From the NCBI GenBank assembly GCA_949295265.1, contig CASFKR010000004.1, forward strand, positions 1 through 63,096: a stretch of 63,096 nucleotides of DNA. Reading direction: 5' to 3'. Numbering within the stretch: the first letter of the stretch is position 1; every line of letters starts with the position of its first letter. Made by a program: the position numbers and the translations under genes. Below the pieces are notes generated by a model. That model made no database searches, was not told where the DNA came from, and was given only the letters and a program-made list of their open reading frames with translations. The stretch comes from an uncultured Verrucomicrobiota bacterium. GTDB taxonomy: Bacteria; Verrucomicrobiota; Kiritimatiellia; RFP12; UBA3636. Of the stretch, positions 9,786 through 42,921 are shown piece after piece.

Positions 9786-9804
9786 TATCCCTGATTTATT
9801 TGTC

Positions 9805-27160: not shown

Positions 27161-27377
27161 GGCAGGGCGGTGGATTCTGCGCAAGGGGGGAGGATATCTC
27201 AGGCGGTGCATCGTGTTTATCGCTGGCGGCACCATCGGATGTGAGGCGGGGAATGGGACCCCGGTCTCAGCCGGTACCCGCCGGGTTGGCATGCAGACAG
27301 GAAGCGTGTTCCGGCGGCGGTAAGCCTCCGTCTGCAATCACGCAGAAAGGCGGAATGGCTGAGTCAGCCTGGTGAAC
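27161..27377. repeat. Direct-repeat copy A (core 27312-27377) bracketing the low-GC islet
   Basis: The 66-nt core matches 29311-29376 at 60/66 positions by manual alignment. The box ggcagggcggtggattctgcgc (27161-27182) matches 29258-29277. Copy A carries about 98 extra nt between the box and the core region. Confidence 0.7.
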
Positions 27378-27444
27378 TTGAATTTTACGTCGGCTTTACA
27401 CTTGACTAAATAATAAATACGCGTATTCTAACGATTCTATTTAA

Positions 27445-27570: not shown

Positions 27571-27650
27571 TGTGAACTCGCGGGCATCCTGTTGCGTGCC
27601 GAAAAGAAGCACGTGATGGGATGATCGTTATGGTAAAAAGTAATAAACCC

Positions 27651-28871
27651 ATGAATGTTATCATTCTTCAGGACATCCCGTACCGGCACCCGGAAGGAGC
27701 ATTGGCACAATACCATGGCATCATCTGGGCCGAAGAATTGCGCCGGAAGGGACATGAAGCGACGAAAATGGTAATCGGTGACCCAACGGTGGTGAAGCCT
27801 GAATGCCCGCTTTTGAGCGTCGCCACCGAGGCACAACGACGTGATCCCGCATTTTGGCGGGATTTGGATGCCGACTGTGTCCTCTACTACTGTGGTCCAA
27901 ACGAAGGGAGCTTTCGTATCCTTGAGGCCATTAAAAAGGGGTCTCCACACACGAAGGTCATTGCCCGGATTGAAAGTTTAGACGCTCCAACCCGAAAGTC
28001 TTCCTGGCGAACGCTGCAACAGATTCCCGGACGATATGTTGTAAACCGCCACTGTCCGACGGAGCTTTTTTCACACGAAAAGAGTTCCGTTTTTGCGGCA
28101 GCGTTGCGGACTTCTGCGCAGACGATACGTGATTTCATCCGTCCAAATCGCGAATTGTGGACAGAAGTGGCCGATGCAGCCGATGCGATTACGTTCTTCT
28201 TTCCGCGGCTGGTCGACCAGGCACAGGACTATTTCCGCAGTTGCGGACGCAATGATCTGGCGAAAAAAGTCCGCTGGTGCGGCTACCCGGTGCGACCGGA
28301 GTTTCGGCCGGCACCGAAAGGGGAAAAATCTCCGGCTTCCGTCATTTCCATTGCCAACTGGAGACATGTCAAGGACCCGGAACTCACGGCGGACGCAATG
28401 GCGGTTGTTTTGCAGCAAAACCCACGGGCGACGTACACAGTTATCGGTATCCAAAGCGAACGCGTTGCCAATCGTCTCATCGCTGCTGTCCCGGAGGCCG
28501 CCCCACGCATTCATGCATATGAGCACATTGACAACTGGAAACTTCCCGGTTTTCTGGCGTCGACGCAAGTCTTTCTCCTGTGCTCACATAAAGAGGGCAT
28601 TCCCAGCGTTCTTTCCGAAGCGTTTTGTTCCGGATGTTCGCTCGCGCTCGCACCGTCTCCGGCCTGTGGTGCATTCAAGGACTATGTTGCCTGCGGGGAC
28701 GGAACGCTTGCTGCCTCTCGCCGCCCGGGCGACGTTGCTGATGCCATTCAGACGGAACTTGCATTGTGGGACTCTGGGAAGCGCACTGCAGACGCTATTT
28801 CCGCAAAATGGGAGCATACAACTGTCGCAGCACTTTGCGATGAGCTGATTCAGTTATCCATCGTACCATAG
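27651..28871 (+). CDS. Glycosyltransferase (GT-B fold, GT4-like) on a low-GC islet
   Basis: SHKEGIPSVLSEAFCSGCSL is the E-x7-E box. The region is visibly lower in GC than its flanks and nearly free of shadow ORFs. The ATG at 27651 (MNVIILQD...) is preferred. Confidence 0.75.
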   Translation: MNVIILQDIPYRHPEGALAQYHGIIWAEELRRKGHEATKMVIGDPTVVKPECPLLSVATEAQRRDPAFWRDLDADCVLYYCGPNEGSFRILEAIKKGSPHTKVIARIESLDAPTRKSSWRTLQQIPGRYVVNRHCPTELFSHEKSSVFAAALRTSAQTIRDFIRPNRELWTEVADAADAITFFFPRLVDQAQDYFRSCGRNDLAKKVRWCGYPVRPEFRPAPKGEKSPASVISIANWRHVKDPELTADAMAVVLQQNPRATYTVIGIQSERVANRLIAAVPEAAPRIHAYEHIDNWKLPGFLASTQVFLLCSHKEGIPSVLSEAFCSGCSLALAPSPACGAFKDYVACGDGTLAASRRPGDVADAIQTELALWDSGKRTADAISAKWEHTTVAALCDELIQLSIVP

Positions 28872-28933: not shown

Positions 28934-28979
28934 GAGTATGGGTCTCATGTGTCCCATGAGACCCATACTCACTCTTTTT
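28934..28979 (+). terminator. Intrinsic terminator after the islet glycosyltransferase
   Basis: Perfect 16-bp stem gagtatgggtctcatg / catgagacccatactc (28934-28949 and 28955-28970) with a 5-nt loop, followed by actcttttt. Confidence 0.7.
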
Positions 28980-29257: not shown

Positions 29258-29376
29258 GGCAGGGCGGAGGATTGCGCCGGTTTGGCGCGCGGACAGGCCA
29301 TACGCGACGGCAGCGGCGGTAAGCCTCCGTCTGCAATCACGCAGAAAGGGGGAATCGCTGAATCAGCCTGCGGAAC
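29258..29376. repeat. Direct-repeat copy B (core 29311-29376), immediately upstream of gspF
   Basis: See copy A. 60/66 identity over the core, plus the ggcagggcggaggattgcgc box at 29258-29277. Confidence 0.7.
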
Positions 29377-29397
29377 CCGAGTTTTGTCGATTTTCCG

Positions 29398-29472: not shown

Positions 29473-30729
29473 ATGCCCACTTTCAATTTCATGGCCAAGG
29501 ATGCCCATGGCTCCTCTCAGGAAGGGACGCTGGACGCCAAGGACATCAACGAGGCGAAAAAGATTCTCAAGCAGCATAACCTGACCCCGGTCTCCGTGAC
29601 GCCGGTCGGCGGCGTTGCGGCACCCAAGAAGAAGAGCGTGCTTGATATGAAGCTTGAGCTCAAGATGCCCGCCTTCCTGAGCCGCGTCAAGCCCAAGGAT
29701 CTGATGGTGCTCACGCGTCAGCTTGCCACGCTCGTGGAATCCGGTCTGCCGCTGTTGCGCGGCTTGCGCATCCTGACGAAGCAGACGAAGCATCCGGCGC
29801 TGCAACGCGTGCTGCAGGGGATGTGCGAGTCCGTCGAAGGCGGCTCGACCTTCTCCGAAGCGCTGGCGCAGTTTCCGAAGGTTTTCGACAACCTGTATAT
29901 CAATATGACGCGCGCGGGCGAAGCCGCCGGTTCGCTGGAGCAGTCGCTCAACCGTCTGGCCGAGTTCCTCGAAAAGGCGCAGAAAATCAAGAGCAAGGTC
30001 AAGAGCGCCATGACGTACCCGGTGGTCGTCCTGGTCGTCGCCCTTTCGCTCACGGGCTTTCTGATGGTGACGGTCATCCCGAAGTTCGAGACGCTCTTCA
30101 GCGACATGCTCGGCAAGAATGCGCGTCTTCCGCCCATTACCGAGTTCGTGGTGAACCTCTCGCACAGTTTTGCGGAATCGGCGGCGCCCATCATTCTGGC
30201 TGTGGTGCTGGTCATCGTGCTGTTCAAGATTCTCGGGCGGACGCGCGCCGGCAAGTACGCTTTTGACGCCGTCAAACTGCGGATCCCTGTCTTCGGCGAT
30301 GTCATCCGCAAATCCTCCATCGGCCGTTCCACGCGTACGCTCGGCACGCTCATGCAGTCCGGTGTCCCCGTGCTTCAGGCGCTCGACATCGTGCGCGACA
30401 CCGCAGGCAATGCGGTCATTGCCCGCGCTTTCCAGAATATTCATGACGCCGTCAAGGAAGGCGACAACATGACGCCCTCCATGGAGGCGAGCAAACAGTT
30501 CCCCGCCATGGTGGTCTCGATGGTCGATGTCGGAGAGGAAACGGGTGCACTCCCGGACATGCTCACGCGTATCGCCAACACCTACGATGGCGAAGTGGAT
30601 GATGCCGTGGATGCCATGACCTCCATCATCGAACCGTTGATGATCGTCGTCCTCGCTGTCATCGTCGGCACGGTGGTTATCGCCATGTTCCAGCCGCTGA
30701 CGGCCATCATCGGGCAGATGAGCGGCTAA
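29473..30729 (+). CDS. gspF: Type II secretion / type IV pilus platform protein (GspF/PilC family)
   Basis: 418 aa. Two T2SSF repeats, three TM segments, and the typical N-terminus MPTFNFMAKDAHGSSQEGTLDA... Confidence 0.85.
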   Translation: MPTFNFMAKDAHGSSQEGTLDAKDINEAKKILKQHNLTPVSVTPVGGVAAPKKKSVLDMKLELKMPAFLSRVKPKDLMVLTRQLATLVESGLPLLRGLRILTKQTKHPALQRVLQGMCESVEGGSTFSEALAQFPKVFDNLYINMTRAGEAAGSLEQSLNRLAEFLEKAQKIKSKVKSAMTYPVVVLVVALSLTGFLMVTVIPKFETLFSDMLGKNARLPPITEFVVNLSHSFAESAAPIILAVVLVIVLFKILGRTRAGKYAFDAVKLRIPVFGDVIRKSSIGRSTRTLGTLMQSGVPVLQALDIVRDTAGNAVIARAFQNIHDAVKEGDNMTPSMEASKQFPAMVVSMVDVGEETGALPDMLTRIANTYDGEVDDAVDAMTSIIEPLMIVVLAVIVGTVVIAMFQPLTAIIGQMSG

Positions 30730-30784
30730 GGCGCCGCCCGCCGCCCCACCGGTTGTTCCGCTCCGCATTTTCACTTTCGCTCCC

Positions 30785-31618
30785 ATGAAGAATAAAGGCT
30801 TTACCCTCATTGAGATGCTGATTGTCATCACCATCATCGTGCTGCTGGCCGGCATGGTGTTCCGGATGGTGGCGGGCATCGGCAAGAGCAACGACATCGC
30901 GAAAACGCGCGCGACCATCGAAAAGGTGGCCAACGCGATCGAGGAATTCCGTTCCATTTACGGAAAGTACCCGCCGGTGTCCGTCTATGAGGATGCGGGA
31001 CAGCCGGTCCGCTATGAGTTCCCCGGTCCGGGCACGTTCAATGCCACGTCGGGCGGCCTCATCACGCAGATTCTCAATGGCGACCGGCAGCATCGCATCC
31101 GGTGGTCAGCCAGCGCCGGCGATTCCAATACCGGGCGCATCTACACCTTCGGTCTGCTTTCCTTCCTGCTGCCCCGCTACTACGGGGCGGCGGAATACGG
31201 TCCGATTGAGTTCACGGGCGCCAACCCGAACGGGGGGACCCAGACCTCCGACAACGGGTTGACCCAGTGGGCCAATTTCAACAAGAAGGTCAACAGCCGT
31301 CCCGGCGATTCCGACCGCGATTTGGCGGCCTGCCGCCGCATCGTCCCGCACCTCGGCGGGCGCATCGGCGACGACAACCGCCCTGTGCAGTCCGGCAACA
31401 ACATCGGATGCGTCTGGGTAGATTACGTCTACGTCTCGCACATCAACACCGGTGCGAAGAGCGGCGTCATCACCAACCGCGCGTATCGCGTGATGGATGC
31501 CTGGGACCGCGATCTGTACTACCGCTCGCTTCCGCCCTACGACTCCTACCGCATCTGGTCCGCCGGACCCGACGGGAAGAGCGGCACGGCGGATGACATC
31601 GTCGCGGGCGTGTACTGA
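30785..31618 (+). CDS. Enlarged GspG-like pseudopilin (277 aa)
   Basis: Class III signal MKNKG|FTLIEMLIVITIIVLLAG. The C-terminus DAWDRDLYYRS...YRIWSAGPDGKSGTADDIV resembles the GspG DPWGxxY...SxGxDG motif, with about 130 extra aa in between. Confidence 0.8.
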   Translation: MKNKGFTLIEMLIVITIIVLLAGMVFRMVAGIGKSNDIAKTRATIEKVANAIEEFRSIYGKYPPVSVYEDAGQPVRYEFPGPGTFNATSGGLITQILNGDRQHRIRWSASAGDSNTGRIYTFGLLSFLLPRYYGAAEYGPIEFTGANPNGGTQTSDNGLTQWANFNKKVNSRPGDSDRDLAACRRIVPHLGGRIGDDNRPVQSGNNIGCVWVDYVYVSHINTGAKSGVITNRAYRVMDAWDRDLYYRSLPPYDSYRIWSAGPDGKSGTADDIVAGVY

Positions 31619-31725
31619 GCTTTCCTTCTCTGCTGCGTTGTTCCTGCTTCCCGTTTCTCTGTTTCCGTTTCTGTTCCGTCTGACCCGGTCGGCACCGGTG
31701 CCGACGTCTGCCAATCTCCCTTTCC

Positions 31726-32493
31726 ATGAATCGCAAAGGCTTCACCCTCATCGAAATGCTCACGGTCATTTCCGTCCTGGGCATTTTGATGGCATTGCTG
31801 TTCCCGGCGTATTCCCGCGTCCAGAAAACGGCCCGCAACGTTGCCGCCACGGATTTGTGCAACCAGGTGGCGGCGGCCTGGGCCAATCTGCAGCTGGACA
31901 ACGGCCGCTACCCCTCGCGCGCGCTCCTCAACAGCCAGGCGGATTACGATGCAGGCGTTTCCGCCGCCGGCGGCGACGGCATCTACAAGATGTCTCCGCG
32001 CATGACCTCCCTCCTGAACTGGTGGGTGGCACCGGGACCGCTCGACGGTGCCGACGCCAAGGCGTACAAACCCACCTACGCGATTTCCGGCGGCGGTGCA
32101 ACGGCGGGTTCCGCACTGCCGACCTCCATTGCCAGCTACGGCGACAACTGCGAGCTATGGCCCGCCGATACGCGCCTCGAGCGCTCCTTCCTCCAGAAGA
32201 AATTCGGCATGTTCACCTCGTGGGTGGAGCGCCATCTCGTCGATGACGACGGCAATCCGCTCACATCGTACGACGCCCAGTACGTCCGGGATACCGGCAA
32301 GAAGTCCAACGATTCCGAAAAGGCCTGGGGCTATGGCTTCGTCTGGGTCATTCTCGATCTCGACGGCGACGGCAAGGTGACCATTCCCGGCGAATTTACG
32401 CGCGACGGCTCGGACCTCGAGCTTCCCGCGACATCCGCCGCCTGGGTCTACGATGAGGACCGCGAAAAGGTCCTCTGCTCCTGGCAGCCGTAA
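31726..32493 (+). CDS. Prepilin-type N-terminal methylation-domain protein (255 aa pseudopilin)
   Basis: MNRKG|FTLIEMLTVISVLGILMA, and an LDLDGDGKV (DxDxDG Ca-binding-like) motif near the C-terminus. Confidence 0.8.
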   Translation: MNRKGFTLIEMLTVISVLGILMALLFPAYSRVQKTARNVAATDLCNQVAAAWANLQLDNGRYPSRALLNSQADYDAGVSAAGGDGIYKMSPRMTSLLNWWVAPGPLDGADAKAYKPTYAISGGGATAGSALPTSIASYGDNCELWPADTRLERSFLQKKFGMFTSWVERHLVDDDGNPLTSYDAQYVRDTGKKSNDSEKAWGYGFVWVILDLDGDGKVTIPGEFTRDGSDLELPATSAAWVYDEDREKVLCSWQP

Positions 32494-32565
32494 GCCCGCC
32501 TGTCCCGCCCGTCGCCCCCGCTTTCTTTCTCCGTCCGCGAATCCTTCCGCAGCATCTCCCTTTCC

Positions 32566-33330
32566 ATGAAATCCCGTCACGGCTTCACCATCATTGAACT
32601 GCTCGTCGTCATCGGCATCATCGGCATTCTCGCCGGACTGCTTTCGTCGGCGGTTCTTAATCAGATCAATACGGCCCGCAATGCGAAGAACAAGAACGAT
32701 GCGGCCCTCCTGCAAAGCGCCTGCATGGAGTATTACCACGACATGAAGCGCTGGCCCATCCCGACTTCCTACGTGAAGGCGAACCTCAAGCGCACGAAGA
32801 CGGGCACCGATCGGGTTGCCGGCTCCTCCGATACCGTGGACATCTACTCCTACAAGCTCGATTTCGAGGAGAACAACAACATCGTCATCAAGGAGCTCCT
32901 CGACGCGAGGCTGCCCGACGGCACGGACAAATGCTTCCTGAACCTCAAGGGCTTTCTCACGCCGGAATCCTCCGGGCTGGGCGAAAAGGATTATCCGTGC
33001 GCGCAGATGACCGATGCGCTGCTCGTGACCCGCGGGGAGGCGACCTACTCCGACCCGGCGGAGTCCAATTACGGCTCCAAGATTCCCAAGCGCGACGACC
33101 CCGTGCTCGTCTACCGCGCGGAGTTCATCGTCTGCCCGTATTGCGACCGCGCCTACACGAAAAACGCGGACCGCCGCTACTGCAACAACAACGAATGCTC
33201 CTACTACAGGAGCAACCACGACTATTACCGCTTCTCGGCCAAGGAGCGCCGCCGCACCTCTTCGCGCGGTGTGCCGTTCCGTTTTACGTTCGATTTCAAC
33301 AACAACGTGTGCATCGTCTCCGCCGATTGA
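32566..33330 (+). CDS. Prepilin-type pseudopilin (254 aa) with a C-terminal four-Cys cluster
   Basis: MKSRHG|FTIIELLVVIGIIGILAG, and the C-terminal CPYC-x12-CNNNEC cluster. Confidence 0.8.
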   Translation: MKSRHGFTIIELLVVIGIIGILAGLLSSAVLNQINTARNAKNKNDAALLQSACMEYYHDMKRWPIPTSYVKANLKRTKTGTDRVAGSSDTVDIYSYKLDFEENNNIVIKELLDARLPDGTDKCFLNLKGFLTPESSGLGEKDYPCAQMTDALLVTRGEATYSDPAESNYGSKIPKRDDPVLVYRAEFIVCPYCDRAYTKNADRRYCNNNECSYYRSNHDYYRFSAKERRRTSSRGVPFRFTFDFNNNVCIVSAD

Positions 33331-33378
33331 CCGGCGGCGCGGCATCTGCGTTCAACCCGCTTTTTCCTTCCCCCTGCC

Positions 33379-34197
33379 ATGGCGTCTTCCCAAACTTCCC
33401 GCGAAGGCTTCACCCTGCTTGAGCTCATCGCCGTGATTGGCATCATCGCCATCATGTCGGTGCTCGTCGTGGGCGGCTTTAACGGCATTCTCAAGGCCTT
33501 CGGCGAAACGGCCGGCGCCGATTCCGTGCGCCGCTCCATCATGCTGGCCCGCCAGCAGGCGTGCGTCGATGGCGAGCATATGTACTTCCAGCTGACGGGC
33601 TACAACACCTACTGCATCGTGCGCCGCGCCGGCACCATCACCGAGCGCGCCCACAAGAGCAAGAAGCCCCTCAACGAGAATCTCAATCTCTACTGGATTT
33701 CCGATGACTACGCGAGCACTGCGGACGGTCTTTCCGGGCTCACGGATCTCTCCGGCTTCAGCAACCAGGACCAGCACGCCATCTGGGATGATTACGTCGA
33801 GCGTTTCTCGGAGATGAAGGTCTACGACATGACGGCTCACGTCGCGTCCGAAATCGAGTGCCCGATGTTCTACGACAGCGAGGACGACACCTGGTCCTTC
33901 GCCATCACCTCCGAGGCGTACTCCAGGGGCTTCAGAGAGGGCAACGATTACGGCTGGGTTGTCTCCCCGGAGCAGTCGCTTCCCAAAGGCATGGTCTTCG
34001 AAGGCACCTATTCGGCCGCCTCCGGCGAAGTCAATGAGAGTGCCATCGAAGACAGCTTCATCCATTTCCTTCCCGACGGTTCGGTCGATCAGTCCAACGG
34101 CACGCGGACCTATAAAATCATCGATCCGACGACCGGTCGCGGCGCCGAGCTTGCTGTGGACGGCAAGGGGAACGTCACCATTTCCACCATCAAATAA
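33379..34197 (+). CDS. GspH-like pseudopilin (272 aa)
   Basis: MASSQTSREG|FTLLELIAVIGIIAIMS, followed by ...ADSVRRSIMLARQQA..., which resembles GspH/FimT N-domains. Confidence 0.7.
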   Translation: MASSQTSREGFTLLELIAVIGIIAIMSVLVVGGFNGILKAFGETAGADSVRRSIMLARQQACVDGEHMYFQLTGYNTYCIVRRAGTITERAHKSKKPLNENLNLYWISDDYASTADGLSGLTDLSGFSNQDQHAIWDDYVERFSEMKVYDMTAHVASEIECPMFYDSEDDTWSFAITSEAYSRGFREGNDYGWVVSPEQSLPKGMVFEGTYSAASGEVNESAIEDSFIHFLPDGSVDQSNGTRTYKIIDPTTGRGAELAVDGKGNVTISTIK

Positions 34198-34269
34198 GCG
34201 GCGCCGGGCGGGCGCCGCTTCCGAAACGATTTTGCTGGCATGAACTTTTGCATTCCATCTCTCCTGCGC

Positions 34270-34959
34270 ATGCGCCGACGCCCGGCTGCGCGCCGTCAGG
34301 GTGGCTTCAGCCTGATTGAAGTCAACATGGCGCTGCTCGTCGCGGCGGGCGGCATGCTGTCGATTTTCGGCGTCTTCCCGGGCGCCCTCCGGCAAAGCAT
34401 GAATGCCCAGGCGGATACGGTTCAGGTGACGTTCGCCTCGTCCCTGCTCGAGACCATCTCCGCCAATGTGCGCGCCATCGACGACATTGCCATCTGGAAC
34501 GATCCCGGCTCGTGGTGGCAGGTCGCCGTCAACGACACCGGCATTGACACCAGCCTCATGGGGATGTCCTCTTTCCGGAGCAGCAGCCGGTTTTCCGAAA
34601 TGACGCGCACGATTGTCGAGGACTACACATCGGCCGATTTCGGCAATGACGAGCCCTGCCAGGTCTGGTACGTCGGCGAGGAGGAGGAAGAGGCGCCTTC
34701 CATCCCCAATTCCAACCGGCTCATCACTCCGGCGCAGTACCTCATCCGCGTCGTGCGCATCTTGCGGCCGCTCCGCGAGGTGACGAGCAATTCCGCCAAT
34801 GCGGACGACCCGGCGAACCTCAATACGTCGGAGGACGACACAACCATCCTTCCGCATCGCTACATCGTCACCGTCGTTTCCACGGATCAGGCTTTCCCCG
34901 CAACGTACATCCGCGAGCAGGTCTTTTCGCAGGAATTCTCCTTCCTCCACCGCCCGTGA
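34270..34959 (+). CDS. GspI-like minor pseudopilin (about 229 aa)
   Basis: MRRRPAARRQGG|FSLIEVNMALLVAAGGML. An alternative ATG at 34240 gives a 22-aa leader. Confidence 0.7.
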   Translation: MRRRPAARRQGGFSLIEVNMALLVAAGGMLSIFGVFPGALRQSMNAQADTVQVTFASSLLETISANVRAIDDIAIWNDPGSWWQVAVNDTGIDTSLMGMSSFRSSSRFSEMTRTIVEDYTSADFGNDEPCQVWYVGEEEEEAPSIPNSNRLITPAQYLIRVVRILRPLREVTSNSANADDPANLNTSEDDTTILPHRYIVTVVSTDQAFPATYIREQVFSQEFSFLHRP

Positions 34960-35024
34960 TGGCCGTTTCGCATTTCTCTTTCATCCTTTCCGACCGCCGG
35001 AAGCGGCGGACGAACCTTTCCCGC

Positions 35025-35765
35025 ATGAAAATCAAACAGGGCATTCAACAGGGCTTTACGCTGATTGAGGTCATGGTCGCAACCGCCGTGCTGCTTATCA
35101 TGATCGTCATGATCGGCACCCTCTTTACGCAGTCCTCTTCGGCCTGGGACGCCGGCTATGCGCGGGCGGAAGGCGGCATGATTGTGCGCGGCGTTGTGGG
35201 CGCCATCACGCGCGACATGAATACGCTCATCGACGGGCGCCCCTTCGGGCAGTTCGGCGATCAGCCGCTCGAGCTGTCCGACTCCTCGCTCTCCTTTGTG
35301 TGCCTCAAGAACAATGAGGATACCGATGAGCGGGAGCCCCGTCTCATTGAATACACCGCCGGTTCTTCCGTGGTGCGCACAGAGTATGCGCTGACGCGCA
35401 CCGGATCCTCCACGCCCGCTTCATGGAGCAGAAGGCAGCTTTCTTCCACAACGCTGCACGACAACGGCAACACCTCCAACGACCAGATGGGCAACTCGTA
35501 TGCCGCCAGCTTCAAGTTTGTGCCGGTCGAAAAGCCCGCGGACAACCTGATCTACAGCGGCAATACGCAGAAACGCACCTCCTTCGAGAATACCGGCGAG
35601 TTCAAAGACAAGATTGCCTGGCAGGATGTCATCGGCGTCAAAATCCGTCTGGAACTGACGCGCACCGGGTCGTACTCCTCGCTGGAGGTCAAATCGCTCG
35701 GGCCGGATGGCGAGGACAATTCGAGCTCGTCTTCCACGAAGAAGGACGACATCATCATCCGCTGA
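35025..35765 (+). CDS. GspJ-like minor pseudopilin (about 246 aa)
   Basis: MKIKQGIQQG|FTLIEVMVATAVLLIMIVMIG...SSSAWDAGY, a PulJ-type N-terminus. Confidence 0.7.
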   Translation: MKIKQGIQQGFTLIEVMVATAVLLIMIVMIGTLFTQSSSAWDAGYARAEGGMIVRGVVGAITRDMNTLIDGRPFGQFGDQPLELSDSSLSFVCLKNNEDTDEREPRLIEYTAGSSVVRTEYALTRTGSSTPASWSRRQLSSTTLHDNGNTSNDQMGNSYAASFKFVPVEKPADNLIYSGNTQKRTSFENTGEFKDKIAWQDVIGVKIRLELTRTGSYSSLEVKSLGPDGEDNSSSSSTKKDDIIIR

Positions 35766-35784
35766 GGACGCAGGGATTTCCGAC

Positions 35785-36318
35785 ATGAATCGTGACAAGG
35801 ACAACATTTCGGGCCGGGCTTCCGGGCGGAGCGGCTTCACGCTGGTGGAACTGCTCGGCGTGGCGGCCATCATCGGGATTCTGATGGGGCTGGCGGGCGG
35901 TGCCGCCGTCGCCGCGCGCAACCGCGCCTACGTCGCCACGGCAACCACCGAGGCGCAGCAGGTCTGCGCCGCCATCAAGGCATACTGGAACGCCTACCGC
36001 ACCTTCCCGAACTTCTCCGGCTCGTCGGAGAACGGGTATACGCTCCTGACCAAGTCCAATCTGGCGCCGCTCATCGGGGAGTCCGGCAACCGCTCCGCCA
36101 TGCTCAACATTCCGCCGGACCGCTTCGAGGGTGACAATGAGGCGTTCTGCGACCCGTGGGGCAACGCCTATCGCGTCAAGCTCGAAACCCCGACGGAGGT
36201 CGAGGCCGATTCCGCTTTCGAGGGCGTCATCAGCTTTCCGGCCCAATACCGCTATTTCTGTGAGGACGGCATCTACGATGAGGATTTTCGCTGGAATGAC
36301 CGCCTCTGGGAGCCCTGA
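35785..36318 (+). CDS. gspG: GspG-type major pseudopilin (177 aa)
   Basis: Leader ...GRSG|FTLVELLGVAAIIGILMG, and a canonical-looking CDPWGNAYRV motif. Confidence 0.8.
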   Translation: MNRDKDNISGRASGRSGFTLVELLGVAAIIGILMGLAGGAAVAARNRAYVATATTEAQQVCAAIKAYWNAYRTFPNFSGSSENGYTLLTKSNLAPLIGESGNRSAMLNIPPDRFEGDNEAFCDPWGNAYRVKLETPTEVEADSAFEGVISFPAQYRYFCEDGIYDEDFRWNDRLWEP

Positions 36319-36368
36319 TGCTTCCTCCGCTCCCTGGTTGAACCGATTTGCAGCCTGCTAACCCGACT

Positions 36369-39300
36369 ATGAAAAACAGACAATCCGAAGGTTCTGCACT
36401 GGTTGTCGTGCTCGGCATCCTCTCCGTGATGATGCTGATGGCCATCGCCTTTTCCATGTTCACCCGGACGGAACGTTCGGGCACCACCAATCTCAAGAAT
36501 TCCTTTGTTGCGCGCCAGAGCCTTCAGACGGCGCTTTCCCGCGCGCTGGAGGCCGTCGACCTGTCGTTCGACAATCCGTCCAACAACTGGGCCGTCCCGG
36601 TCTGGCGGGAGCCGTATCTGGCCTCTTCGAGCGAAGCCTCCGACGACTATTTCCATTCGCGGCAGCTCGACAATAATGAGAATGCCGAAGCGAAGATTCT
36701 CAATGCGGAGATGGCCGCGTGCCTGACGCCCGCGCAGCTCGCGCTGGTGCGCTCGGCCGATGTCCAGTGGGCTCCCATTTACGCCTCCATCGGCGCCAAG
36801 GGGCGCGTCCACGGCACGAGCAGCGGCATCTACGGCGAAGAAGGCCGCGTGGCCGATGATGCGCTCATCGGGCGCTACGCCTTTGTCGTGCTGGATACCA
36901 CGGGTCTGCTCGACATGAACAAAGCCGGGTACGACCAGGACAGCGGTGCCCGCGAGGATACCTCCGGCGAGGATCCCTCTGCGTTCATTCTGCCCACGCG
37001 CACCTCCACGGATTATCCGCTCTCCATGCGGAACGCGAAAGAATTTCTCGCCGGGCGCAGAAAAGCCGGGTCTTTCTTCTCCACGGCGGACATGATTTCC
37101 TGGACCGCCCTGCAGGATTGCGACCGCCTCGGCATCAAGAAGGGCGACTATCCTTCGATGGCGTTTCTCTACCCCGGCGACAGCGACCGGTTGCAGAATT
37201 CCTGCAAGGGCACCGCCGATGACGGCCCCTATTTCCCGGCCGACCTCTTTTCGGGCGTGACCACTTCGCTCGATGAAATCACGCCGGAAGGGCACCCGAA
37301 AATTCCGTTGCCCGATCAGGACGAAATCGACAGCTGGGACAGCGGGCAGAAGCGCAACTTCGCCCGCCGCACGCTGGGTGCCATGACGCGCATTTTCGCC
37401 CGCTCCCGTTCCGAAAACCGCAGATCCGGCACCGAACGTGCCGCCGCCGAGGACAACAACGGCAATTACGAGCCCAAGTACCGCTTCTTCCCGAACAAGA
37501 ACAGCTACGAGGTTTCGCGGCCCCGCCTCGCGACCGTTGCGCTTCTCGACGCCCTCGATGATGATTCGGTGCCCGGGCAGTGGGGCTCGTTCAACGCCTG
37601 GCAGGATCTCGATGAGATTTCCGATCTGCCGCTTCTGCTCGAAGACGGCACGTTTGCCTCGGTGGACGACCCGTTCTCCGCGCCGGTCAGCATCCGCGGC
37701 AATCCGCTGAATTTCCCGATGACGGAGCCGGCTCCCGCGCTTTCCATGACGTGGGCCTTCATGAATAAGAAGGGCGGCGCCACCTACGGCACCGATGGAG
37801 TTGGCGGGATCCGCGATGACATCGAAGGTTCCGGACATGTGGAAGGCGATCCGGTCGGCGATGCCTGCGCTCAGGTTTATAAGCAGATCGAGTTCGAGGC
37901 GAAGGTCGGCGCCAGTGCGCGTCTCTCCTTTGCCGATGCGCGCAACATCCCCGGCATCACGATGGATATGTCGTATGACATTCTTCTTTCCAATCCGGAG
38001 CCGGGCTCCGTTTCGAAAATCAGCAGGGACGATACATCGCTGATTGAATACCTCAACTGGGGCGGAACGAGCGTGCGCGATCCCAAGAAAATCTACTGGG
38101 AGGTTCTCCACAACGGCGCGTGGAATGCGCTCTTCGATCTGGACAACAACTACATCTCCGGCAGTAAGAAGGACAACTCCGGAAACTGGGTGCTGATTTC
38201 CCGCGGCTTCGGCGTCGAGGACACCAAGCAGTTCCGCGTCCGTTGCTATGCGAAGGATTGGCCCAAACAGGCGGAGGACGGCACCTGGGTCGGCACCTGG
38301 CAGTTCTACGAGCCGACGCTGTTCGAGGAAGATCCCTCCCAGACGCCGAATGCCAACGCCACGGACGTCTACCTTCCCGTTCGCATGAAGGTGACGATTT
38401 CCAACAAGGACGGGGATATTCAGCAGGTCCCGGCACCCGCGCTTGATGATGGAGATAAGTCCTACTGGATCCGGATGAACATGGGCATCGTCCATACTTC
38501 CGGCACGGAAACCCACGTCAAGAACCCGAACGGCTCCAAAGGCGGGCTCTCCGTCGGCTGGGCCATGTGCGCGGCTCCTTACTTTGCATTCGACACGTCT
38601 TCGCTCTATACGGATACCCGTCAGGGGCAGTCTTCCTACCCGGAAGGCATGCTTGTGTGGATGAACGATTTCGTCTGCCGCTCCATGGGTGAAAAGTGGA
38701 CCGACGACCTGATCAAGAAGATGGATGAGGACGGTGAGAGCGCCGCGAACGACATGATGACCTTCGGCGGTCAGGCGGCTCCGCGCTTCAATATTCTGCA
38801 GCAGGATTACCTCTTCAGCGCAGAGTACAACGAAATGCCGTTCACCTCCTGGACGATGCACCGCGGCAAAACCTGTCCGGACATGGCGCACACGCTCGTT
38901 TCCGGCGATCAGGATACGCAGCTCGGCGAGCAGGATCAGGCCGGCAGTTCCTTCTTCTCGCTCAACGAGCTCATGGACCGCGAGATGCCCAACGGTGCCT
39001 TTCTGTCGCTCGGTGAGCTGGGCGGCGTCTCCTGCGGTCCGTATGAGACGCTCTCGCTGTTCCAGACGTTCCGCTGGACGCAGGACATGGTTAACGGCGA
39101 TTTCCACCGCGTCTTCGACTACTTCACGCTCACGAAGCAGCGCGCCCCGGATGCGAAGAATATCGAACTCAATTCCACCACGTACGATCCCACGGCGAAT
39201 GCCGTTCAGTTTCCCGCCGTTCACAACGGTCGGGTGAACCTCAATGCGCCGCAGCTCGTGTATTACGAGGATACCGTCCCGCCCCGTGCAACGGTGGATG

Positions 39301-39875
39301 GCGCTCCCTGCAATCCGTACCCGATTGCTTCGGTGTTCAATGGTGCCGCATACCGGCACAGCGGCGGCACCGCCTCCAACACCGTCACAGAAGCGGAGGC
39401 GCTCAATCTCGCCATAAACCTGATTTCCGCATTCGACACGGAAGCGACCCGCATCGAGTCGAAGCGCTTCAAGACCTCCCGCCGCGTTGTCTCCCGTCTT
39501 TCCGATATCGGCATGGCCGCCGATTACGACGGCAACGGTGAGGAGCGGAGTCCGATTCTCGATGCGATGCTGAACGATTTCTCCAGGAAGCCGGTCAGCG
39601 ACGCGGAGCGCGAGAGTCTCCTGAACTCCGTCATCAACGGCTTCACGACGCGCGGTCAGAGCTACCTCATCCTGCTCCGGGCGGATGCCTATACGCCCAA
39701 CTACGGCTACGAGGACTCCACGTCCGACGGCACCACACTCGCAACCACGCGCGCCATCGTGGAGGTCTTCCGCGATCCGGAGCCCGCCCGCATGACGGAC
39801 GGCTCGCTCGTGGAGGATAAGGACGGTCCCGTGGCCTACCACAACTGGCTGATCCGCTCCTACCGCGTCTTCTGA
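36369..39875 (+). CDS. Giant GspK-like minor pseudopilin (about 1168 aa)
   Basis: MKNRQSEG|SALVVVLGILSVMMLMAIAF lacks Glu+5, as GspK does. GRYAFVVLDTTGLLDMNKA resembles the GspK DExGKxNLN box. It is about 3.5 times the canonical GspK length. Confidence 0.75.
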   Translation: MKNRQSEGSALVVVLGILSVMMLMAIAFSMFTRTERSGTTNLKNSFVARQSLQTALSRALEAVDLSFDNPSNNWAVPVWREPYLASSSEASDDYFHSRQLDNNENAEAKILNAEMAACLTPAQLALVRSADVQWAPIYASIGAKGRVHGTSSGIYGEEGRVADDALIGRYAFVVLDTTGLLDMNKAGYDQDSGAREDTSGEDPSAFILPTRTSTDYPLSMRNAKEFLAGRRKAGSFFSTADMISWTALQDCDRLGIKKGDYPSMAFLYPGDSDRLQNSCKGTADDGPYFPADLFSGVTTSLDEITPEGHPKIPLPDQDEIDSWDSGQKRNFARRTLGAMTRIFARSRSENRRSGTERAAAEDNNGNYEPKYRFFPNKNSYEVSRPRLATVALLDALDDDSVPGQWGSFNAWQDLDEISDLPLLLEDGTFASVDDPFSAPVSIRGNPLNFPMTEPAPALSMTWAFMNKKGGATYGTDGVGGIRDDIEGSGHVEGDPVGDACAQVYKQIEFEAKVGASARLSFADARNIPGITMDMSYDILLSNPEPGSVSKISRDDTSLIEYLNWGGTSVRDPKKIYWEVLHNGAWNALFDLDNNYISGSKKDNSGNWVLISRGFGVEDTKQFRVRCYAKDWPKQAEDGTWVGTWQFYEPTLFEEDPSQTPNANATDVYLPVRMKVTISNKDGDIQQVPAPALDDGDKSYWIRMNMGIVHTSGTETHVKNPNGSKGGLSVGWAMCAAPYFAFDTSSLYTDTRQGQSSYPEGMLVWMNDFVCRSMGEKWTDDLIKKMDEDGESAANDMMTFGGQAAPRFNILQQDYLFSAEYNEMPFTSWTMHRGKTCPDMAHTLVSGDQDTQLGEQDQAGSSFFSLNELMDREMPNGAFLSLGELGGVSCGPYETLSLFQTFRWTQDMVNGDFHRVFDYFTLTKQRAPDAKNIELNSTTYDPTANAVQFPAVHNGRVNLNAPQLVYYEDTVPPRATVDGAPCNPYPIASVFNGAAYRHSGGTASNTVTEAEALNLAINLISAFDTEATRIESKRFKTSRRVVSRLSDIGMAADYDGNGEERSPILDAMLNDFSRKPVSDAERESLLNSVINGFTTRGQSYLILLRADAYTPNYGYEDSTSDGTTLATTRAIVEVFRDPEPARMTDGSLVEDKDGPVAYHNWLIRSYRVF

Positions 39876-39979
39876 CGCTTCTCCATCGGCTCTCCTCTTT
39901 TCCGATGGCGTTTTCCGTTGAGGAACAGTCTCCGGGCTGTTCCTTCCCTTTCAGTTGAACACGCAGGGTTGACAGATTC

Positions 39980-42838
39980 ATGAGAAAACATTTTCTTCAA
40001 CGGTTCGTCGGCATGGTCGTTTTTTGCGCGAGTGCCGCCGTTTCTTCTGCTGAAGTGCTGATGGCAGACGGTTTCCAGACCGGAACCGGCGGCTATTCGG
40101 CGGGCAATGCACGCGACCAGCATGCAACCGCCGGGACGGTCGGGTTCAGTGCCTCCTCCTCCTGGGCGGGCGGCACGGGCATTCCGCATATCAGTGCAAA
40201 CGACGGGCTTGCGCTCCCGGAAACATTCCCGGCGGAAATGCTCTATGGCTCCGGGGCGTATATCGTGCGCAATTCGGGCACGGCGACCCCGGCCCGCGGG
40301 CTGTACCGTCTGGCGGATACGGCGGTCATCCCGGAAAGCGGGACGCTCTATTTCCGGATGCTGATGCGGATGGATTCCGGCGTAAACGCTTCGCTGGCCG
40401 AAGGACGCTATGCCGGCGGCGGCCTGCTCACGGAGACGTTCAACGGAACAAGCGACACGCTCAATACGCTCTCGGCGCGTCCGGACGGGCTTCAGTTCCT
40501 GTTCCGGAAAACCGCAGACGGAACGGACCTTGTTCTGGCGGCCGGCGGGCAGGATACCGTGCTCGTCCCGGCGGCGGACCTGCAGATCGGCGTTCCGTAT
40601 CTCTGCCTGGCGGAATGCGCCATCGGCGCCGGAGAAAACGGCGCGGAGGTCCTCCGCGCCTCGGCTGTTCCGGTGGCGGAGTGGGCGGGCTTTCCGTCCT
40701 GGAGCGACCCCGTCTCCGCAGAGCTTTGCGGCACGGACGGGACGTTTATCGGCATCGGTTTTTACTCGCCCTATCAGACCGGCAACACCTCGATGATTTT
40801 CGATGAGGCGGTGCTGGCGACCGCACTGAGCGATGTCGTCTATGCGGAGGGCGGCGTCTTTCTCTCGTACGGTTCCGCCGAGGCGGTTACCGCTCAGGAG
40901 GCGACGGTTTCCCTGACGGTCATCCCGAACGGAGGGACGGTTGCCTCCGTGACGCTTTCGTACCGGGAAGCCGGGACGGAGGCGTGGACGGAGGTTCCGT
41001 TTGCGGAGATCCCGGAAGATCTGATTTTTTCGTACACATTCACGGGGTTGGAACCGGCCGCCGGTTACGAGTATTTCCACACGGTTGTGACGGATCAGGG
41101 AACGGCGCAGACGCCCGTGCAGTCATTCGAAACGGTGGGCCTGGCTTCGTTCGGCGCCGTTACCGTTTCGCAGGATGAAACGTCCGGAGATCTGCAGTTT
41201 ACCTGTACGCTGGAGGATGCCGGATTCGGTACGCCCATCGTCGAGGCGCTCTACGGCACGGATGCAGATGCGCTGGAAGTCATTGAGACCTTCCCGGGCG
41301 CGGTTTCCGGTCAGGTGCTTTCGGTGAGCGTGGCGGCACCCGCAACGCCCGGCGTGTCGCAGTTCGTCCAGTTTCGTGCGACGACGTCCGTGGGCGACCG
41401 CGTGCGGACCGCCGTTTCGGAACTGGCGCAGTACGATTGGACCGGCTCAACGGTCTGGTCCAACGCTTCGGGCGACGGGCGCTGGTCGACGGCTGCCAAC
41501 TGGAACCCGGCGATGGTGCCGAATTCGCTGCTTTCGGCGGTGATCAACATCGCGGCGGATGTGAAAGCCGGTGCGGAAACGCTGACGGCGGAGTCGCTTT
41601 CCGTACAGGCTCCCGCCGCAACGGTGCGCTTTTCTTTCGCTCCGGAAACGCAGCTCACAGTCGGGGCGTTCAACTTCGCGACGGAGAGCGGCGCCAACGA
41701 TGTCCGGATGGAAATCCTCGGCGGCACGTTCCGGATTACGGGTTCGGACGCCTCGATTTGCCGCGGAACTTCGCGCTCGAAGATGGTCTTCCGGGACAGT
41801 GTGACGACCATGCGGAACATGACGATTACCGGCGGTACAAGCAACGCCTGGGAGATTCTGGACGGCGCCACGGTCAACGTCGGCAATGCCAACATCGGCG
41901 GTGCCGGGTTCTGCTCGGTGACCGTTGAAAAGGGCGGCGTGTGGGTCAACGGTTCGGTGACCACGTATTCGCAGCGCAACCGGATTGACGTCAATGGCGG
42001 CACGGTGACCAATTCCGGCGTGCTGGTCATCGGCAAGAACAACGGCTCCGGCGCGGACACCGTCCGCATCCGCAACGGCGGCGTCTGGATGCAGGGCGGC
42101 ACGGTCTCCATTGCCGGGCGCAATCAGGGGCATGTGCTGGAGGTCTCGGACGGCGGCCTGTTCGAAGGTGCCGCCGTGAAAGTCGGGCATAGCAGCGACG
42201 GCTGGGGCGCACCGACGGGGCGGATTGTCGTCTCGAACGGCACGTTCCGCGTCTCTTCGGTTTCGATGCCGGAGGATTCGCGCTATGGCGTCGGGCAGAC
42301 GGCCTTCGTGTACGGCGATACGCCGGAAGCGGCCCTCTTTACGGTGAGCGGCAATCTGCAGCTGGGATGCGGCTCCATTCTGGCCGGCCAGAACCACCAG
42401 GCGCAGAATGCATTCACCGTTGCGGGCGGTACCCTGCGCGTGGACGGCACCATCCGGCTCGGGTTGACGCATGACGCCAACACCAACAACACGCTGCGCC
42501 TGACGGGTCGCACCGCCGATGTGTCGGCAGCCGCGCTGACCGTCTCCAACGGCGACCGCGTGGTCTACGTGGTGCCCGCCGGTGCGGGCTACGAATCGCA
42601 GCCCGTCCTCCGGATTGACGGCACGGCGGCCTTCGATGCCGGATCGGGCATCCGCGTGGAAGTGCCGGACTTCGCAGCCGGACGCTTTACGCTGCTGTCC
42701 GCCGGGACGATTGCGGGGCTGGATGAAAGCATGATTGAAGTCACGGGCTCCCGCGCACGGGAATACTCCGTCGTGCTGACGGAGCAGACCGTGACGCTGC
42801 ACCTCAACAACAACGCCACGCTCCTGCTGGTACACTGA
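39980..42838 (+). CDS. Secreted 952-aa beta-helix protein with autotransporter-associated beta-strand (PATR) repeats and an FN3-like segment
   Basis: Signal peptide MRKHFLQRFVGMVVFCASAAVSSAEV. WSNASGDGRWSTAANWNPAMVPNS box and repeated GGT..V.G/NGG..tv motifs. I see no C-terminal barrel, PEP-CTERM or LPXTG signal. Confidence 0.75.
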   Translation: MRKHFLQRFVGMVVFCASAAVSSAEVLMADGFQTGTGGYSAGNARDQHATAGTVGFSASSSWAGGTGIPHISANDGLALPETFPAEMLYGSGAYIVRNSGTATPARGLYRLADTAVIPESGTLYFRMLMRMDSGVNASLAEGRYAGGGLLTETFNGTSDTLNTLSARPDGLQFLFRKTADGTDLVLAAGGQDTVLVPAADLQIGVPYLCLAECAIGAGENGAEVLRASAVPVAEWAGFPSWSDPVSAELCGTDGTFIGIGFYSPYQTGNTSMIFDEAVLATALSDVVYAEGGVFLSYGSAEAVTAQEATVSLTVIPNGGTVASVTLSYREAGTEAWTEVPFAEIPEDLIFSYTFTGLEPAAGYEYFHTVVTDQGTAQTPVQSFETVGLASFGAVTVSQDETSGDLQFTCTLEDAGFGTPIVEALYGTDADALEVIETFPGAVSGQVLSVSVAAPATPGVSQFVQFRATTSVGDRVRTAVSELAQYDWTGSTVWSNASGDGRWSTAANWNPAMVPNSLLSAVINIAADVKAGAETLTAESLSVQAPAATVRFSFAPETQLTVGAFNFATESGANDVRMEILGGTFRITGSDASICRGTSRSKMVFRDSVTTMRNMTITGGTSNAWEILDGATVNVGNANIGGAGFCSVTVEKGGVWVNGSVTTYSQRNRIDVNGGTVTNSGVLVIGKNNGSGADTVRIRNGGVWMQGGTVSIAGRNQGHVLEVSDGGLFEGAAVKVGHSSDGWGAPTGRIVVSNGTFRVSSVSMPEDSRYGVGQTAFVYGDTPEAALFTVSGNLQLGCGSILAGQNHQAQNAFTVAGGTLRVDGTIRLGLTHDANTNNTLRLTGRTADVSAAALTVSNGDRVVYVVPAGAGYESQPVLRIDGTAAFDAGSGIRVEVPDFAAGRFTLLSAGTIAGLDESMIEVTGSRAREYSVVLTEQTVTLHLNNNATLLLVH

Positions 42839-42872
42839 CGCTTTCCCCTGCGTTCGAAAAAAAAAATAAAAC

Positions 42873-42921
42873 GCGAACCCGTCCCTGCGCAACACGGCAG
42901 GGGCGGGTTCGCCTTTCTTTT
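42873..42921 (+). terminator. Strong intrinsic terminator closing the pseudopilin/PATR unit (A-tract upstream, so possibly bidirectional)
   Basis: 16-bp stem gcgaacccgtccctgc / gcaggggcgggttcgc (one G-U pair) with an 8-nt loop, followed by ctttctttt. It is preceded by aaaaaaaaaataaaa. Confidence 0.8.

Follow-up and report, generated by a model that had tools for sequence, protein, structure and literature searches.

Nine genes, gspF followed by P2–P9, form a block at positions 29473–39875 on the + strand of the stretch of DNA that we analyzed (63,096 nt, hereafter the window). They begin a run of ten co-directional genes that ends at a terminator-like hairpin:

29473..30729, + strand: gspF/pilC-type inner-membrane platform protein, 418 aa (Pfam T2SSF)
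30785..31618, + strand: P2, 277 aa, putative major pseudopilin, GspG-type with an insertion predicted to be folded
31726..32493, + strand: P3, 255 aa, pilin-like paralog with a G-like N terminus and a unique globular part
32566..33330, + strand: P4, 254 aa, pilin-like paralog with a Cys-rich C-terminal part
33379..34197, + strand: P5, 272 aa, GspH/ComGD-like minor pseudopilin candidate
34270..34959, + strand: P6, 229 aa, GspI/PilV-like minor pseudopilin candidate (GFSLIEV)
34959..35765, + strand: P7, 268 aa (246 from the next ATG), GspJ-like minor pseudopilin candidate
35785..36318, + strand: P8, 177 aa, small GspG-like paralog (DPWGNAY) without a Ca-loop tail
36369..39875, + strand: P9, 1168 aa, giant Glu5-less K-type cap candidate (EG|SALVVV)
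39980..42838, + strand: P10, 952 aa, secreted protein, co-directional neighbor, probably outside the module
42873..42912, + strand: intrinsic-terminator-like hairpin (16-bp stem, 12 GC pairs, T-rich tail), end of the co-directional run

This arrangement agrees in most respects with a sequence-only reading of the same DNA. All ten of the open reading frames (ORFs) that it described were found, in one direction and with a coding GC3 signature of 0.78–0.84, and the eight prepilin signals match the sequence exactly as it had listed them. The subunit lengths (277, 255, 254, 272, 229, 268 [246 from the next ATG], 177, and 1168 aa) are the same in independent gene calls on other contigs, the motifs DAWDRDLYY in P2 and DPWGNAY in P8 are both present, P9 has Val in place of Glu at +5, and the hairpin (16 bp, 12 GC, T-tail) ranks first among the terminator-like sites of the region. 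The same reading had placed a candidate promoter near 29398, and this was not borne out: a sigma-70 scan found no promoter-like site there, and promoter-like sites were not enriched (3 vs. 4.3 expected). The intergenic gaps within the module range from −1 to 107 nt, with the start of P7 overlapping the stop of P6, and a terminator scan inside the module revealed no convincing internal terminator.

Prepilin Signals and Subunit Sizes

P2–P8 each carry a class III signal (G|F(T/S)xxE plus a hydrophobic helix), and P9 carries a variant that lacks Glu5. The seven GF(T/S)xxE motifs are the sole instances in a six-frame translation of the whole window. P2, P3, P4, P5, P7, and P8 score above the cutoff of TIGR02532. 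The earlier claim that every subunit starts with a prepilin signal was upheld in part by the N_methyl profile, which scores P5 and P6 below the Pfam gathering score; the motif itself is plain in both sequences. We considered whether the extra lengths of the subunits could be due to miscalled starts or low-complexity linkers and ruled this out, because the independent gene calls agree, the sequence entropy is normal, and the sizes and many internal positions are conserved.

P2 Is a Putative GspG-type Major Pseudopilin

P2 passes both the N_methyl model (32.1 bits) and the T2SSG model (PF08334; 26.7 bits vs. a gathering score of 21), and it misses the cutoff of the TIGR01710 equivalog (49.9 vs. 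88.85 bits). It has an insertion of ~170 residues, at about positions 64–235. AlphaFold2 modeled the protein with a pLDDT of 89.8 and a pTM of 0.85, a confident prediction in which the insertion is folded; the possibility that the inserted region is only a linker thus found no support (pLDDT 89.8). A Foldseek search found no PDB neighbor of the insertion, and the top six matches of the whole model were all GspG, PulG, or EpsG, over the C-terminal motif only (37–43 columns). In that region P2 aligns without gaps to residues 78–113 of EHEC GspG (3G20), the calcium-loop region, including S-x-GPDG...T-x-DDI, and G261, P262, G264, D270, and D271 are nearly invariant among 60 homologs. P2 thus combines the T2SSG domain with the C-terminal calcium-binding loop that together mark the major pseudopilin GspG, and we regard it as a putative GspG-type major pseudopilin. 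The sequence-only reading had preferred a surface-exposed, decorated fiber or adhesion apparatus to a periplasmic piston. [quoted passage not shown] P2 homologs form more than 244 clusters of 250–330 aa, which public sources name "type II secretion system protein" or "PulG."

The Other Subunits and the Platform Protein

P3 and P4 match N_methyl at 31 and 31.1 bits, respectively, and both have orthologs in 14 loci (234–265 aa for P3). The TIGR01710 match of P3 is confined to the N terminus, and P3 matches Verru_Chthon D at 25.0 bits (cutoff 70). P4 contains eight Cys residues, including CxxC...CxxxxC. The matches of P5 to ComGD (29.9 bits) and to GspH (25.3 bits) are weak and N-terminal, and in the PDB the profile of its orthologs finds only the N-terminal helices of pilins. 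P6, which is conserved in 14 loci, matches PilV (TIGR02523; 32.8 bits), XpsI (23.3 bits), and Verru_Chthon B (19.8 bits; cutoff 51.4), all N-terminally and below cutoff. P7 matches N_methyl at 26.7 bits and, over the N terminus only, Verru_Chthon C (24.4 bits; cutoff 256.5) and ComGF (20.9 bits). P8 matches N_methyl at 25.7 bits and TIGR01710 at 34.4 bits over residues 42–139, and D123, W125, G126, and Y129 are invariant among its orthologs. As the matches of P5, P6, and P7 to GspH/I/J are N-terminal and below cutoff, and their ortholog profiles reach only the N-terminal helices of solved pilins, the labels GspH, GspI, and GspJ rest on gene order and number. Sequence and profile searches with P2, P8, and P10 and searches with the P5–P9 ortholog profiles, run against all PDB chains, returned the shared N-terminal pilin helix or nothing.

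P9 is the last gene of the module in every related locus. Its full-length homologs form 33 clusters of 1140–1430 aa, a family of giant proteins without Glu5, within a superfamily of 1229 representative clusters. P9 itself scores 17 bits against the GspK model NF037980 (cutoff 130) and does not match Verru_Chthon A; among 48 relatives, 31 match GspK and 23 match Verru_Chthon_A, in the N-terminal helix only (the first 53–79 positions of the GspK model and the first 43–60 of the 1296-position Verru_Chthon_A model). The AlphaFold2 model of P9 is of moderate confidence (pLDDT 62.7), and Foldseek found no significant PDB neighbor for it (best E 0.03). We refer to P9 as a candidate K-type cap.

The platform protein contains two stretches that match Pfam T2SSF (PF00482; 1.1e-65), as in a polytopic, GspF-type platform protein with two T2SSF domains. 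PilC models score it slightly better than the GspF model does (402.7 bits for NF052607 and 386.1 bits for NF052606 vs. 379.7 bits for TIGR02120), and it falls short of the equivalog cutoffs of both kinds (424 bits for TIGR02120 and 700 for the PilC models).

Conservation of the Module and Absence of Adjoining Partner Genes

The nine-gene block and its subunit sizes are kept in about 17 other Kiritimatiellia, "Verrucomicrobia," and Lentisphaerales genomes (loci L007–L022, L026, and L027, on which the comparison of synteny and size is based). GspF is 64%–88% identical across related loci and the pilins are 30%–73% identical. The module occurs once per locus; its flanks are unrelated and contain housekeeping genes. 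In rumen and gut Kiritimatiellia, the nine genes thus stay together as a conserved and self-contained unit.

Searches for partner genes were negative throughout. None of the ~45 ORFs of the window encodes T2SSE, a secretin, peptidase A24, or GspC/L/M; GspE, secretin, GspC/L/M, and prepilin peptidase are also missing from the regions that flank the module in 20 related loci; a search of all ORFs of the related loci for the Walker-A motif found no GspE; and a Pfam search of 51 flanking ORFs found no T2SSE or secretin. PilB/PilT, PilMNOPQ, and PilY1 are likewise absent from the window and the related loci. The sequence-only reading had noted that the 63 kb encode no ATPase, secretin, GspC/L/M, or prepilin peptidase, which holds among the ~45 ORFs. 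It had also proposed a noncanonical T2SS/T4P-like module that retains the G/H/I/J/K logic without an adjoining ATPase or secretin; this proposal is supported, and in none of the 20 related loci is the module contiguous with gspCDE...LM, an arrangement that would have made it an ordinary T2SS. Its description of oversized subunits and extra pilin paralogs also stands, the sizes being conserved across orthologs. The label "orphan" that it gave to GspF is relative: type IVa pili normally have split loci, and a multilocus layout is typical of them rather than of T2SSs (PMC6668835). A literature search found no paper that treats this module, the pseudopilins of Kiritimatiellota, or the Verru_Chthon cassette.

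Interpretation of the Module

Our best explanation, to which we assign a probability of about 0.55, is that gspF-P2...P9 supplies the platform and the pseudopilus, one half of a type II secretion-like machine that is specific to the lineage Kiritimatiellia and encoded at split loci. The complete machine is one that we infer rather than see, because no ATPase, secretin, GspC/L/M, or peptidase lies in the window or beside the module in any related locus. Like the gspF-G-H-I-J-K genes of T2SSs (Klebsiella Pul, Vibrio Eps, and EHEC Gsp), the module has GspF, then a putative GspG-type major subunit with a calcium-loop motif, candidate H-, I-, and J-like subunits, and, in last place, a candidate K-type protein without Glu5, and its class III signals have Gly at −1 and, except in P9, Glu at +5. 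It differs from them in lacking adjoining gspC/D/E/L/M/O genes in any genome examined, in having eight pilin-like genes rather than five, and in the larger size of every subunit (277 vs. about 145 aa for P2 and 1168 vs. about 325 aa for P9); moreover, its globular parts have no sequence-detectable similarity to solved GspH/I/J/K, and all NCBIfam equivalog cutoffs are missed. On this reading, the module is a well-known machine in enlarged form. Several observations weigh against a T2SS: GspF is nearer to the PilC models, the layout is multilocus, eight pilin-like genes, every one of them oversized, take the place of the usual five, the H/I/J/K labels reflect N-terminal-helix matches below curated cutoffs, and the model of P9 is of moderate confidence and without a significant structural neighbor.

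In such a machine, a prepilin peptidase encoded elsewhere would cleave the subunits after the conserved Gly, and assembly would be primed at the platform by P9 as the K-like cap together with P7, P6, and P5 (J-, I-, and H-like). A GspE/PilB-type ATPase, also encoded elsewhere, would drive GspF so that P2 is polymerized beneath the tip, and P3, P4, and P8 may be low-abundance or alternative subunits. The filament would act under or through a secretin, likewise encoded elsewhere, and export enzymes that have folded in the periplasm, for example the glycoside hydrolases and sulfatases on which the phylum relies. The extra domains would enlarge and decorate the filament and may join in contact with substrates or glycans. 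A T2SS has been reported in K. glycovorans, and many sulfatases with signal peptides are predicted in the same genome (PMC5148204).

The preference of the platform protein for the PilC models (402.7 and 386.1 bits) and the split-locus layout typical of type IVa pili (PMC6668835) would suit a surface-exposed, type IV pilus-like adhesive fiber of the kind that the sequence-only reading proposed. The module would then provide the platform and subunits of an extracellular filament that attaches to polysaccharide, plant particles, or other cells through its enlarged subunits and 1168-aa tip protein and is powered by a PilB/PilT and PilQ set encoded elsewhere; we consider this possible but less likely. 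The type IVa operon fimU-pilV-pilW-pilX-pilY1-pilE, with pilC elsewhere (Pseudomonas and Myxococcus), shares with the module its multilocus organization. It combines an H/I/J/K-like priming set, for which the module has candidates, with a very large protein associated with the tip and a small pilin that resembles the major one (PilE, comparable to P8), and the platform of the module resembles PilC as much as GspF. The giant terminal protein recalls the roles of PilX plus PilY1, and the small G-like P8 beside the cap gene recalls PilE, the small pilin gene in fimU-pilVWXY1E operons. The M. xanthus pilus, reported to have large subunits (PMC11046646), offers a parallel to the subunit sizes, and the weak Foldseek matches of P9 are to beta-sandwich adhesins and carbohydrate-binding modules (E 0.03–0.1, not significant). 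However, P2 has the GspG-specific domain and the calcium-loop motif rather than a type IV major-pilin head, the large protein of the module itself carries a pilin signal and there is no separate PilY1, no homolog of PilT or PilMNOPQ was found in the window or the related loci, and the P9 and P2 models gave no significant adhesin or lectin fold in Foldseek. Extra folded domains joined to a pilin module, which give the filament new properties, are known from modular type IV pilins (Streptococcus sanguinis PilB/PilC and type IVb TcpB/CofB); here, by contrast, the enlargement extends to all eight subunits, the presumed major one among them, and the extra domains of P9 and P2 have no fold family that Foldseek recognizes.

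It is unlikely that the module is an accessory pilin cassette of the Verru_Chthon kind, that is, a tip-and-subunit set plugged into a machine shared with other cassettes, with gspF simply linked to it and the module not itself the main secretion apparatus of the cell. Verru_Chthon proteins A–D (NCBIfam TIGR02600/02598/02599/02596) make up a computationally defined pilin cassette of the PVC group, from the same superphylum, and like the module they form a prepilin-signal set that includes a giant Glu5-less protein (protein A, 1296 positions). P6, P7, P2, P3, P5, and P8 have weak N-terminal matches to B, C, and D (B with P6, C with P7, and D with P3), 23 of the 48 P9 relatives match A, and the size of the P9 superfamily (1229 clusters) suggests that there are many cassettes. 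But all of these matches are far below the curated cutoffs (14–31 bits vs. 51–332) and cover only 40–80 N-terminal residues, in the shared helix, and no module protein reaches the cutoff of any of the four subfamilies. A highly conserved gspF always accompanies the module, which occurs once per locus between housekeeping flanks and has nine genes, including gspF and a GspG-type subunit, whereas the Verru_Chthon cassette is defined with four, A–D (TIGRFAMs description). A DNA-uptake pseudopilus analogous to ComG would account for the weak N-terminal matches to the ComGC, ComGD, ComGE, and ComGF models, but these are confined to the shared N-terminal helix and below cutoff, no ComEA, ComEC, or DprA is encoded nearby among the window ORFs, P2 is GspG-type, and the subunit sizes are unlike those of Com pilins; we regard this explanation as highly improbable.

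In a less conventional reading, the module would represent a distinct, Kiritimatiellia-centered subtype of type IV filament machine, in which every filament subunit has acquired a folded domain specific to the lineage and a multidomain pilin of more than 1000 aa serves as the cap. Such a filament would be thick, decorated, and surface exposed, binding or presenting polysaccharide and enzymes as a hybrid of secretion piston and glycan-capture fiber rather than a classical periplasmic pseudopilus, a proposal that we consider doubtful. In rumen, gut, and sediments, Kiritimatiellia are abundant and break down complex and sulfated polysaccharides; they must export many folded enzymes, and their secretion machinery has so far been a matter of genome annotation. 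In the module the filament subunits are systematically enlarged, the candidate K-type cap exceeds 1000 residues, and the unit is kept apart from motor and pore, so that it offers a concrete set of targets with which to probe the limits of remodeling of the T2SS/T4P design. It also brings out two uncurated families that are now named only generically or as hypothetical: P2-type GspG proteins with an insertion, and P9-type giant caps, which provide a link to the unexplained Verru_Chthon cassette.

Features Adjoining the Module

The sequence-only reading had described P10 as a PATR protein and suggested that it could be cargo or a tip or partner adhesin. PF12951 does not match P10 even at E ≤ 10, and the sole match is to fn3 (E 0.012, below gathering). 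P10 has no homolog in 17 related loci, and among 5.8 billion proteins it forms only two clusters, which are near-identical (80%–99% identity). We rejected a role as cargo or tip adhesin because P10 is not conserved with the cluster. P10 is probably species specific and a neighbor rather than a component of the module, and it may be an unrelated surface protein that evolves fast. In strain L001, P9 and P10 have a 216-aa gene between them. Residues 580–830 of P10 contain GG(T/V)-type segments that have no clear periodicity. An Rfam search of the window found no family. A repeated 73-nt element lies 5' of gspF, and its predicted folding is marginally better than that of shuffled sequences (z −1.8).

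A Platform Gene Followed by Eight Prepilin-like Genes

Ten consecutive ORFs on the + strand (29473–42838) share a coding GC3 signature, with GC3 of 0.78–0.84 in all ten versus 0.55–0.63 in the overlapping antisense ORFs. The first encodes a platform protein of the GspF/PilC type, which Pfam T2SSF matches in two stretches at 1.1e-65. It is followed by eight genes, P2–P9, whose prepilin-type starts read exactly as the sequence-only reading had given them (the slash marks the boundary between −1 and +1) and whose lengths are matched by gene calls made independently on other contigs.

Genes of the run
29473–30729, +, gspF, platform protein
30785–31618, +, P2, 277 aa, KG/FTLIEM
31726–32493, +, P3, 255 aa, KG/FTLIEM
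32566–33330, +, P4, 254 aa, HG/FTIIEL
33379–34197, +, P5, 272 aa, EG/FTLLEL
34270–34959, +, P6, 229 aa, GG/FSLIEV
34959–35765, +, P7, 268 aa, QG/FTLIEV
35785–36318, +, P8, 177 aa, SG/FTLVEL
36369–39875, +, P9, 1168 aa, EG/SALVVV
39980–42838, +, P10, 952 aa, downstream protein

A regular-expression scan of six frames found the GF(T/S)xxE signal seven times in the 63 kb, always on the + strand inside the block formed by gspF and P2–P9. Intergenic gaps range from −1 to 107 nt. Only two strong + strand terminator-like hairpins were found, one upstream of the block (28934–28970) and one downstream of P10 (42873–42912), the latter being the terminator already proposed at 42873; the promoter proposed near 29398 was not recovered in a sigma-70 scan. 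Co-transcription of the run is plausible.

The 20 nt before five pilin starts (30765–30784, 31706–31725, 32546–32565, 33359–33378, and 34250–34269) are pyrimidine-rich and contain no Shine-Dalgarno-like purine run; TCTCCCTTTCC, for example, precedes both P3 and P4. These upstream sequences suggest that translation initiation may be Shine-Dalgarno-independent in the source organism.

P2 Is a GspG-Type Subunit with a Large Insertion

P2–P9 resemble one another over about 60 N-terminal residues only. Beyond this segment, where low-complexity linkers had been considered, they have normal sequence complexity and are partially conserved among orthologues.

Among the eight, the strongest candidate for major subunit is P2, whose gene directly follows gspF. 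It scores above the Pfam thresholds for both N_methyl and T2SSG; residues 1–63 correspond to positions 1–60 of the GspG model and residues 236–271 to the end of the T2SSG domain. Where GspG (134–145 aa) has a short loop, P2 holds an insertion of about 170 residues. An AlphaFold2 model built with 60 homologues (pLDDT 89.8, pTM 0.85) predicts helices and strands throughout this insertion, for which Foldseek found no PDB neighbours. The six best Foldseek matches of P2 were all GspG/PulG/EpsG, over 37–43 columns only. The C terminus aligns without gaps to residues 78–113 of EHEC GspG, including S-x-GPDG...T-x-DDI, and G261, P262, G264, D270, and D271 are near-invariant across the P2 family. PMC13081927 describes a calcium site conserved in the major subunit as setting T2SS endopili apart.

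P8 contains the DPWGNAY motif and is missing the C-terminal loop of P2, and the G-likeness of P3 and P4 is limited to the N terminus. Weak N-terminal matches were to GspH/ComGD for P5, PilV/XpsI for P6, and Verru_Chthon C/ComGF for P7; profiles of these three proteins (15 orthologues) matched solved pilins only in the N-terminal helices. Gene order and number make P5, P6, and P7 candidates for H, I, and J.

P4 has eight cysteines, an unusual content for a pilin. Four form a cluster at residues 190–211, CPYC...C(x4)C, which is only partly conserved among orthologues and may represent a disulfide knot or metal site.

P9 Resembles GspK at Its N Terminus

The P9 signal has Gly at −1 and Val at +5; GspK-type proteins likewise have Gly at −1 and no Glu5. 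Among 5.8 billion proteins, P9 has 33 homologous clusters, all of 1140–1430 aa and none with a Pfam domain or a name. An exhaustive profile search returned 1229 representative clusters with E ≤ 1e-3, of which 110 have E ≤ 1e-30. Distant relatives (700–1100 aa) share the N-terminal 75–200 and C-terminal ~130 profile positions and vary in the middle. NCBIfam GspK matched 31 of 48 relatives and "Verru_Chthon cassette protein A" 23 of 48, in both cases over the first 43–79 model positions only and scoring 14–40 bits where the cutoffs are 130 and 332. P9 is therefore K-like in its signal, helix, and last-gene position, the matches to GspK being confined to the N terminus, and it belongs to a large family, as yet uncurated, of giant K-like PVC proteins. 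In the AlphaFold2 model (pLDDT 62.7), the two ends are rich in helices and the middle in beta structure; the model had no significant PDB neighbours.

The Module Is Conserved Apart from Motor and Pore Genes

In a survey of one genome per species, we found 17 related loci, all in MAGs assigned to Kiritimatiellia, "Verrucomicrobia," or Lentisphaerales and most of them of rumen or gut origin. All sufficiently long loci have the order gspF, seven pilin-like genes, P9 homologue, with identities of 64%–88% for GspF and 30%–73% for the pilins. The same nine-gene module surrounds two more distant P2 homologues. Subunit-family sizes are kept across orthologues (e.g., P2, 262–337 aa; P8, 158–190 aa). 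Two loci are internally permuted (F-P2-[P6-P7-P8]-[P4-P5]-P3-P9) and a third has P4 shifted forward, and even in these gspF-P2 come first and P9 last. The block-wise permutation hints at sub-complexes, with I/J and a small G-like subunit (P6-P7-P8) forming one unit. In a more distant Kiritimatiellia genome (GCA_050950285.1, 849-kb contig, 8661–11405), only gspF, a P2 homologue of 261 aa, and a single pilin of 186 aa lie together. The other subunits must be encoded at different sites there, and the nine-gene layout is thus not shared by the whole class.

The flanks differ between genomes and contain no GspE-type Walker motif, T2SSE, or secretin domain; in none of the related loci was the cluster found contiguous with a standard gspCDE...LM set. 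The module is thus a conserved, self-contained unit, always apart from motor and pore. When about 45 candidate genes over the whole window were put through Pfam, none was T2SSE, secretin, peptidase A24, or GspC/L/M, in agreement with the sequence-only reading; a few ORFs, none near the block, matched no Pfam family and might hide divergent GspC/L/M-like proteins. The scanned genes outside the module are housekeeping: PfkB, PFK, SerA-like, glycosyltransferases, UvrA-like ATPase, epimerase, LpxD, OmpH, homoserine dehydrogenase, two GreA-domain proteins, HTH-M78 regulator, GH130, S11, S4, RpoA, PyrK/PyrD, KdtA, FabD/G/F, and a Wzy-like protein.

P10 carries a Sec-type signal, an fn3 region that stays below threshold (~300–380), and irregular GG(T/V) segments (~580–830); its earlier label as a PATR protein was not borne out, as PF12951 failed to match even with the limit set at E ≤ 10. 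Homologous clusters number just two (80% and 99% identity), no related locus has a homologue, and the gene is missing at genus level. In one strain a further gene, of 216 aa, separates P9 from P10 (L001, 19146–19796), and another strain has a 941-aa variant of P10 (L005, 10694–12299). The most suitable view of P10 is that of a neighbour of the module that evolves fast.

A Probable Split T2SS-like Machine

The module is best explained as one half, platform plus pseudopilus, of a T2SS-like machine with split loci. This reading rests on a set that has a GspG-type candidate major subunit and ends in a Glu5-less cap, on a single, strongly conserved module among housekeeping genes, and on a phylum with known exported sulfatases and glycoside hydrolases, in which T2SS has been reported (PMC5148204). 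A surface-reaching adhesive or glycan-binding fibre is nevertheless a live alternative, because type IVa pili typically have such a split layout (PMC6668835), GspF is equidistant between the PilC and GspF models, and there are eight subunits versus five, every one enlarged, all of which argues against a plain T2SS. In its operating principle the module is still a type IV filament machine; its architecture and its P2-type and P9-type families are uncurated and have no structural match. Public names of the module proteins are "type II secretion system protein," [quoted passage not shown] or hypothetical, and a literature search found no publication on the module.

Other Features of the Window

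Two copies of a 73-nt direct repeat (27314–27386 and 29313–29385; 89% identical, 1999 nt apart) enclose a GT1 glycosyltransferase gene (27621–28871, low GC3 of 0.55) and the hairpin at 28934–28970. The repeat has no Rfam match and a fold z-score of just −1.8. The GT1 gene is present in one strain variant (L003) and missing from two others (L001 and L002); the bracketed segment is a strain-variable 2-kb insertion duplicating the region just upstream of gspF. Divergent from the module lie two adjoining GreA-domain genes (23972–24493 and 24607–27084, − strand), a pair kept upstream of gspF in close strains. One encodes a normal 173-aa GreA; the other protein (789–825 aa) has a long N-terminal extension (HTH_GRAD, precomputed Pfam) with GreA_N and GreA_C at its end. 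A 670-aa ORF without a Pfam match (19594–21606, − strand) lies directly upstream of ompH-lpxD, the usual place of bamA, and may encode a highly divergent BamA.
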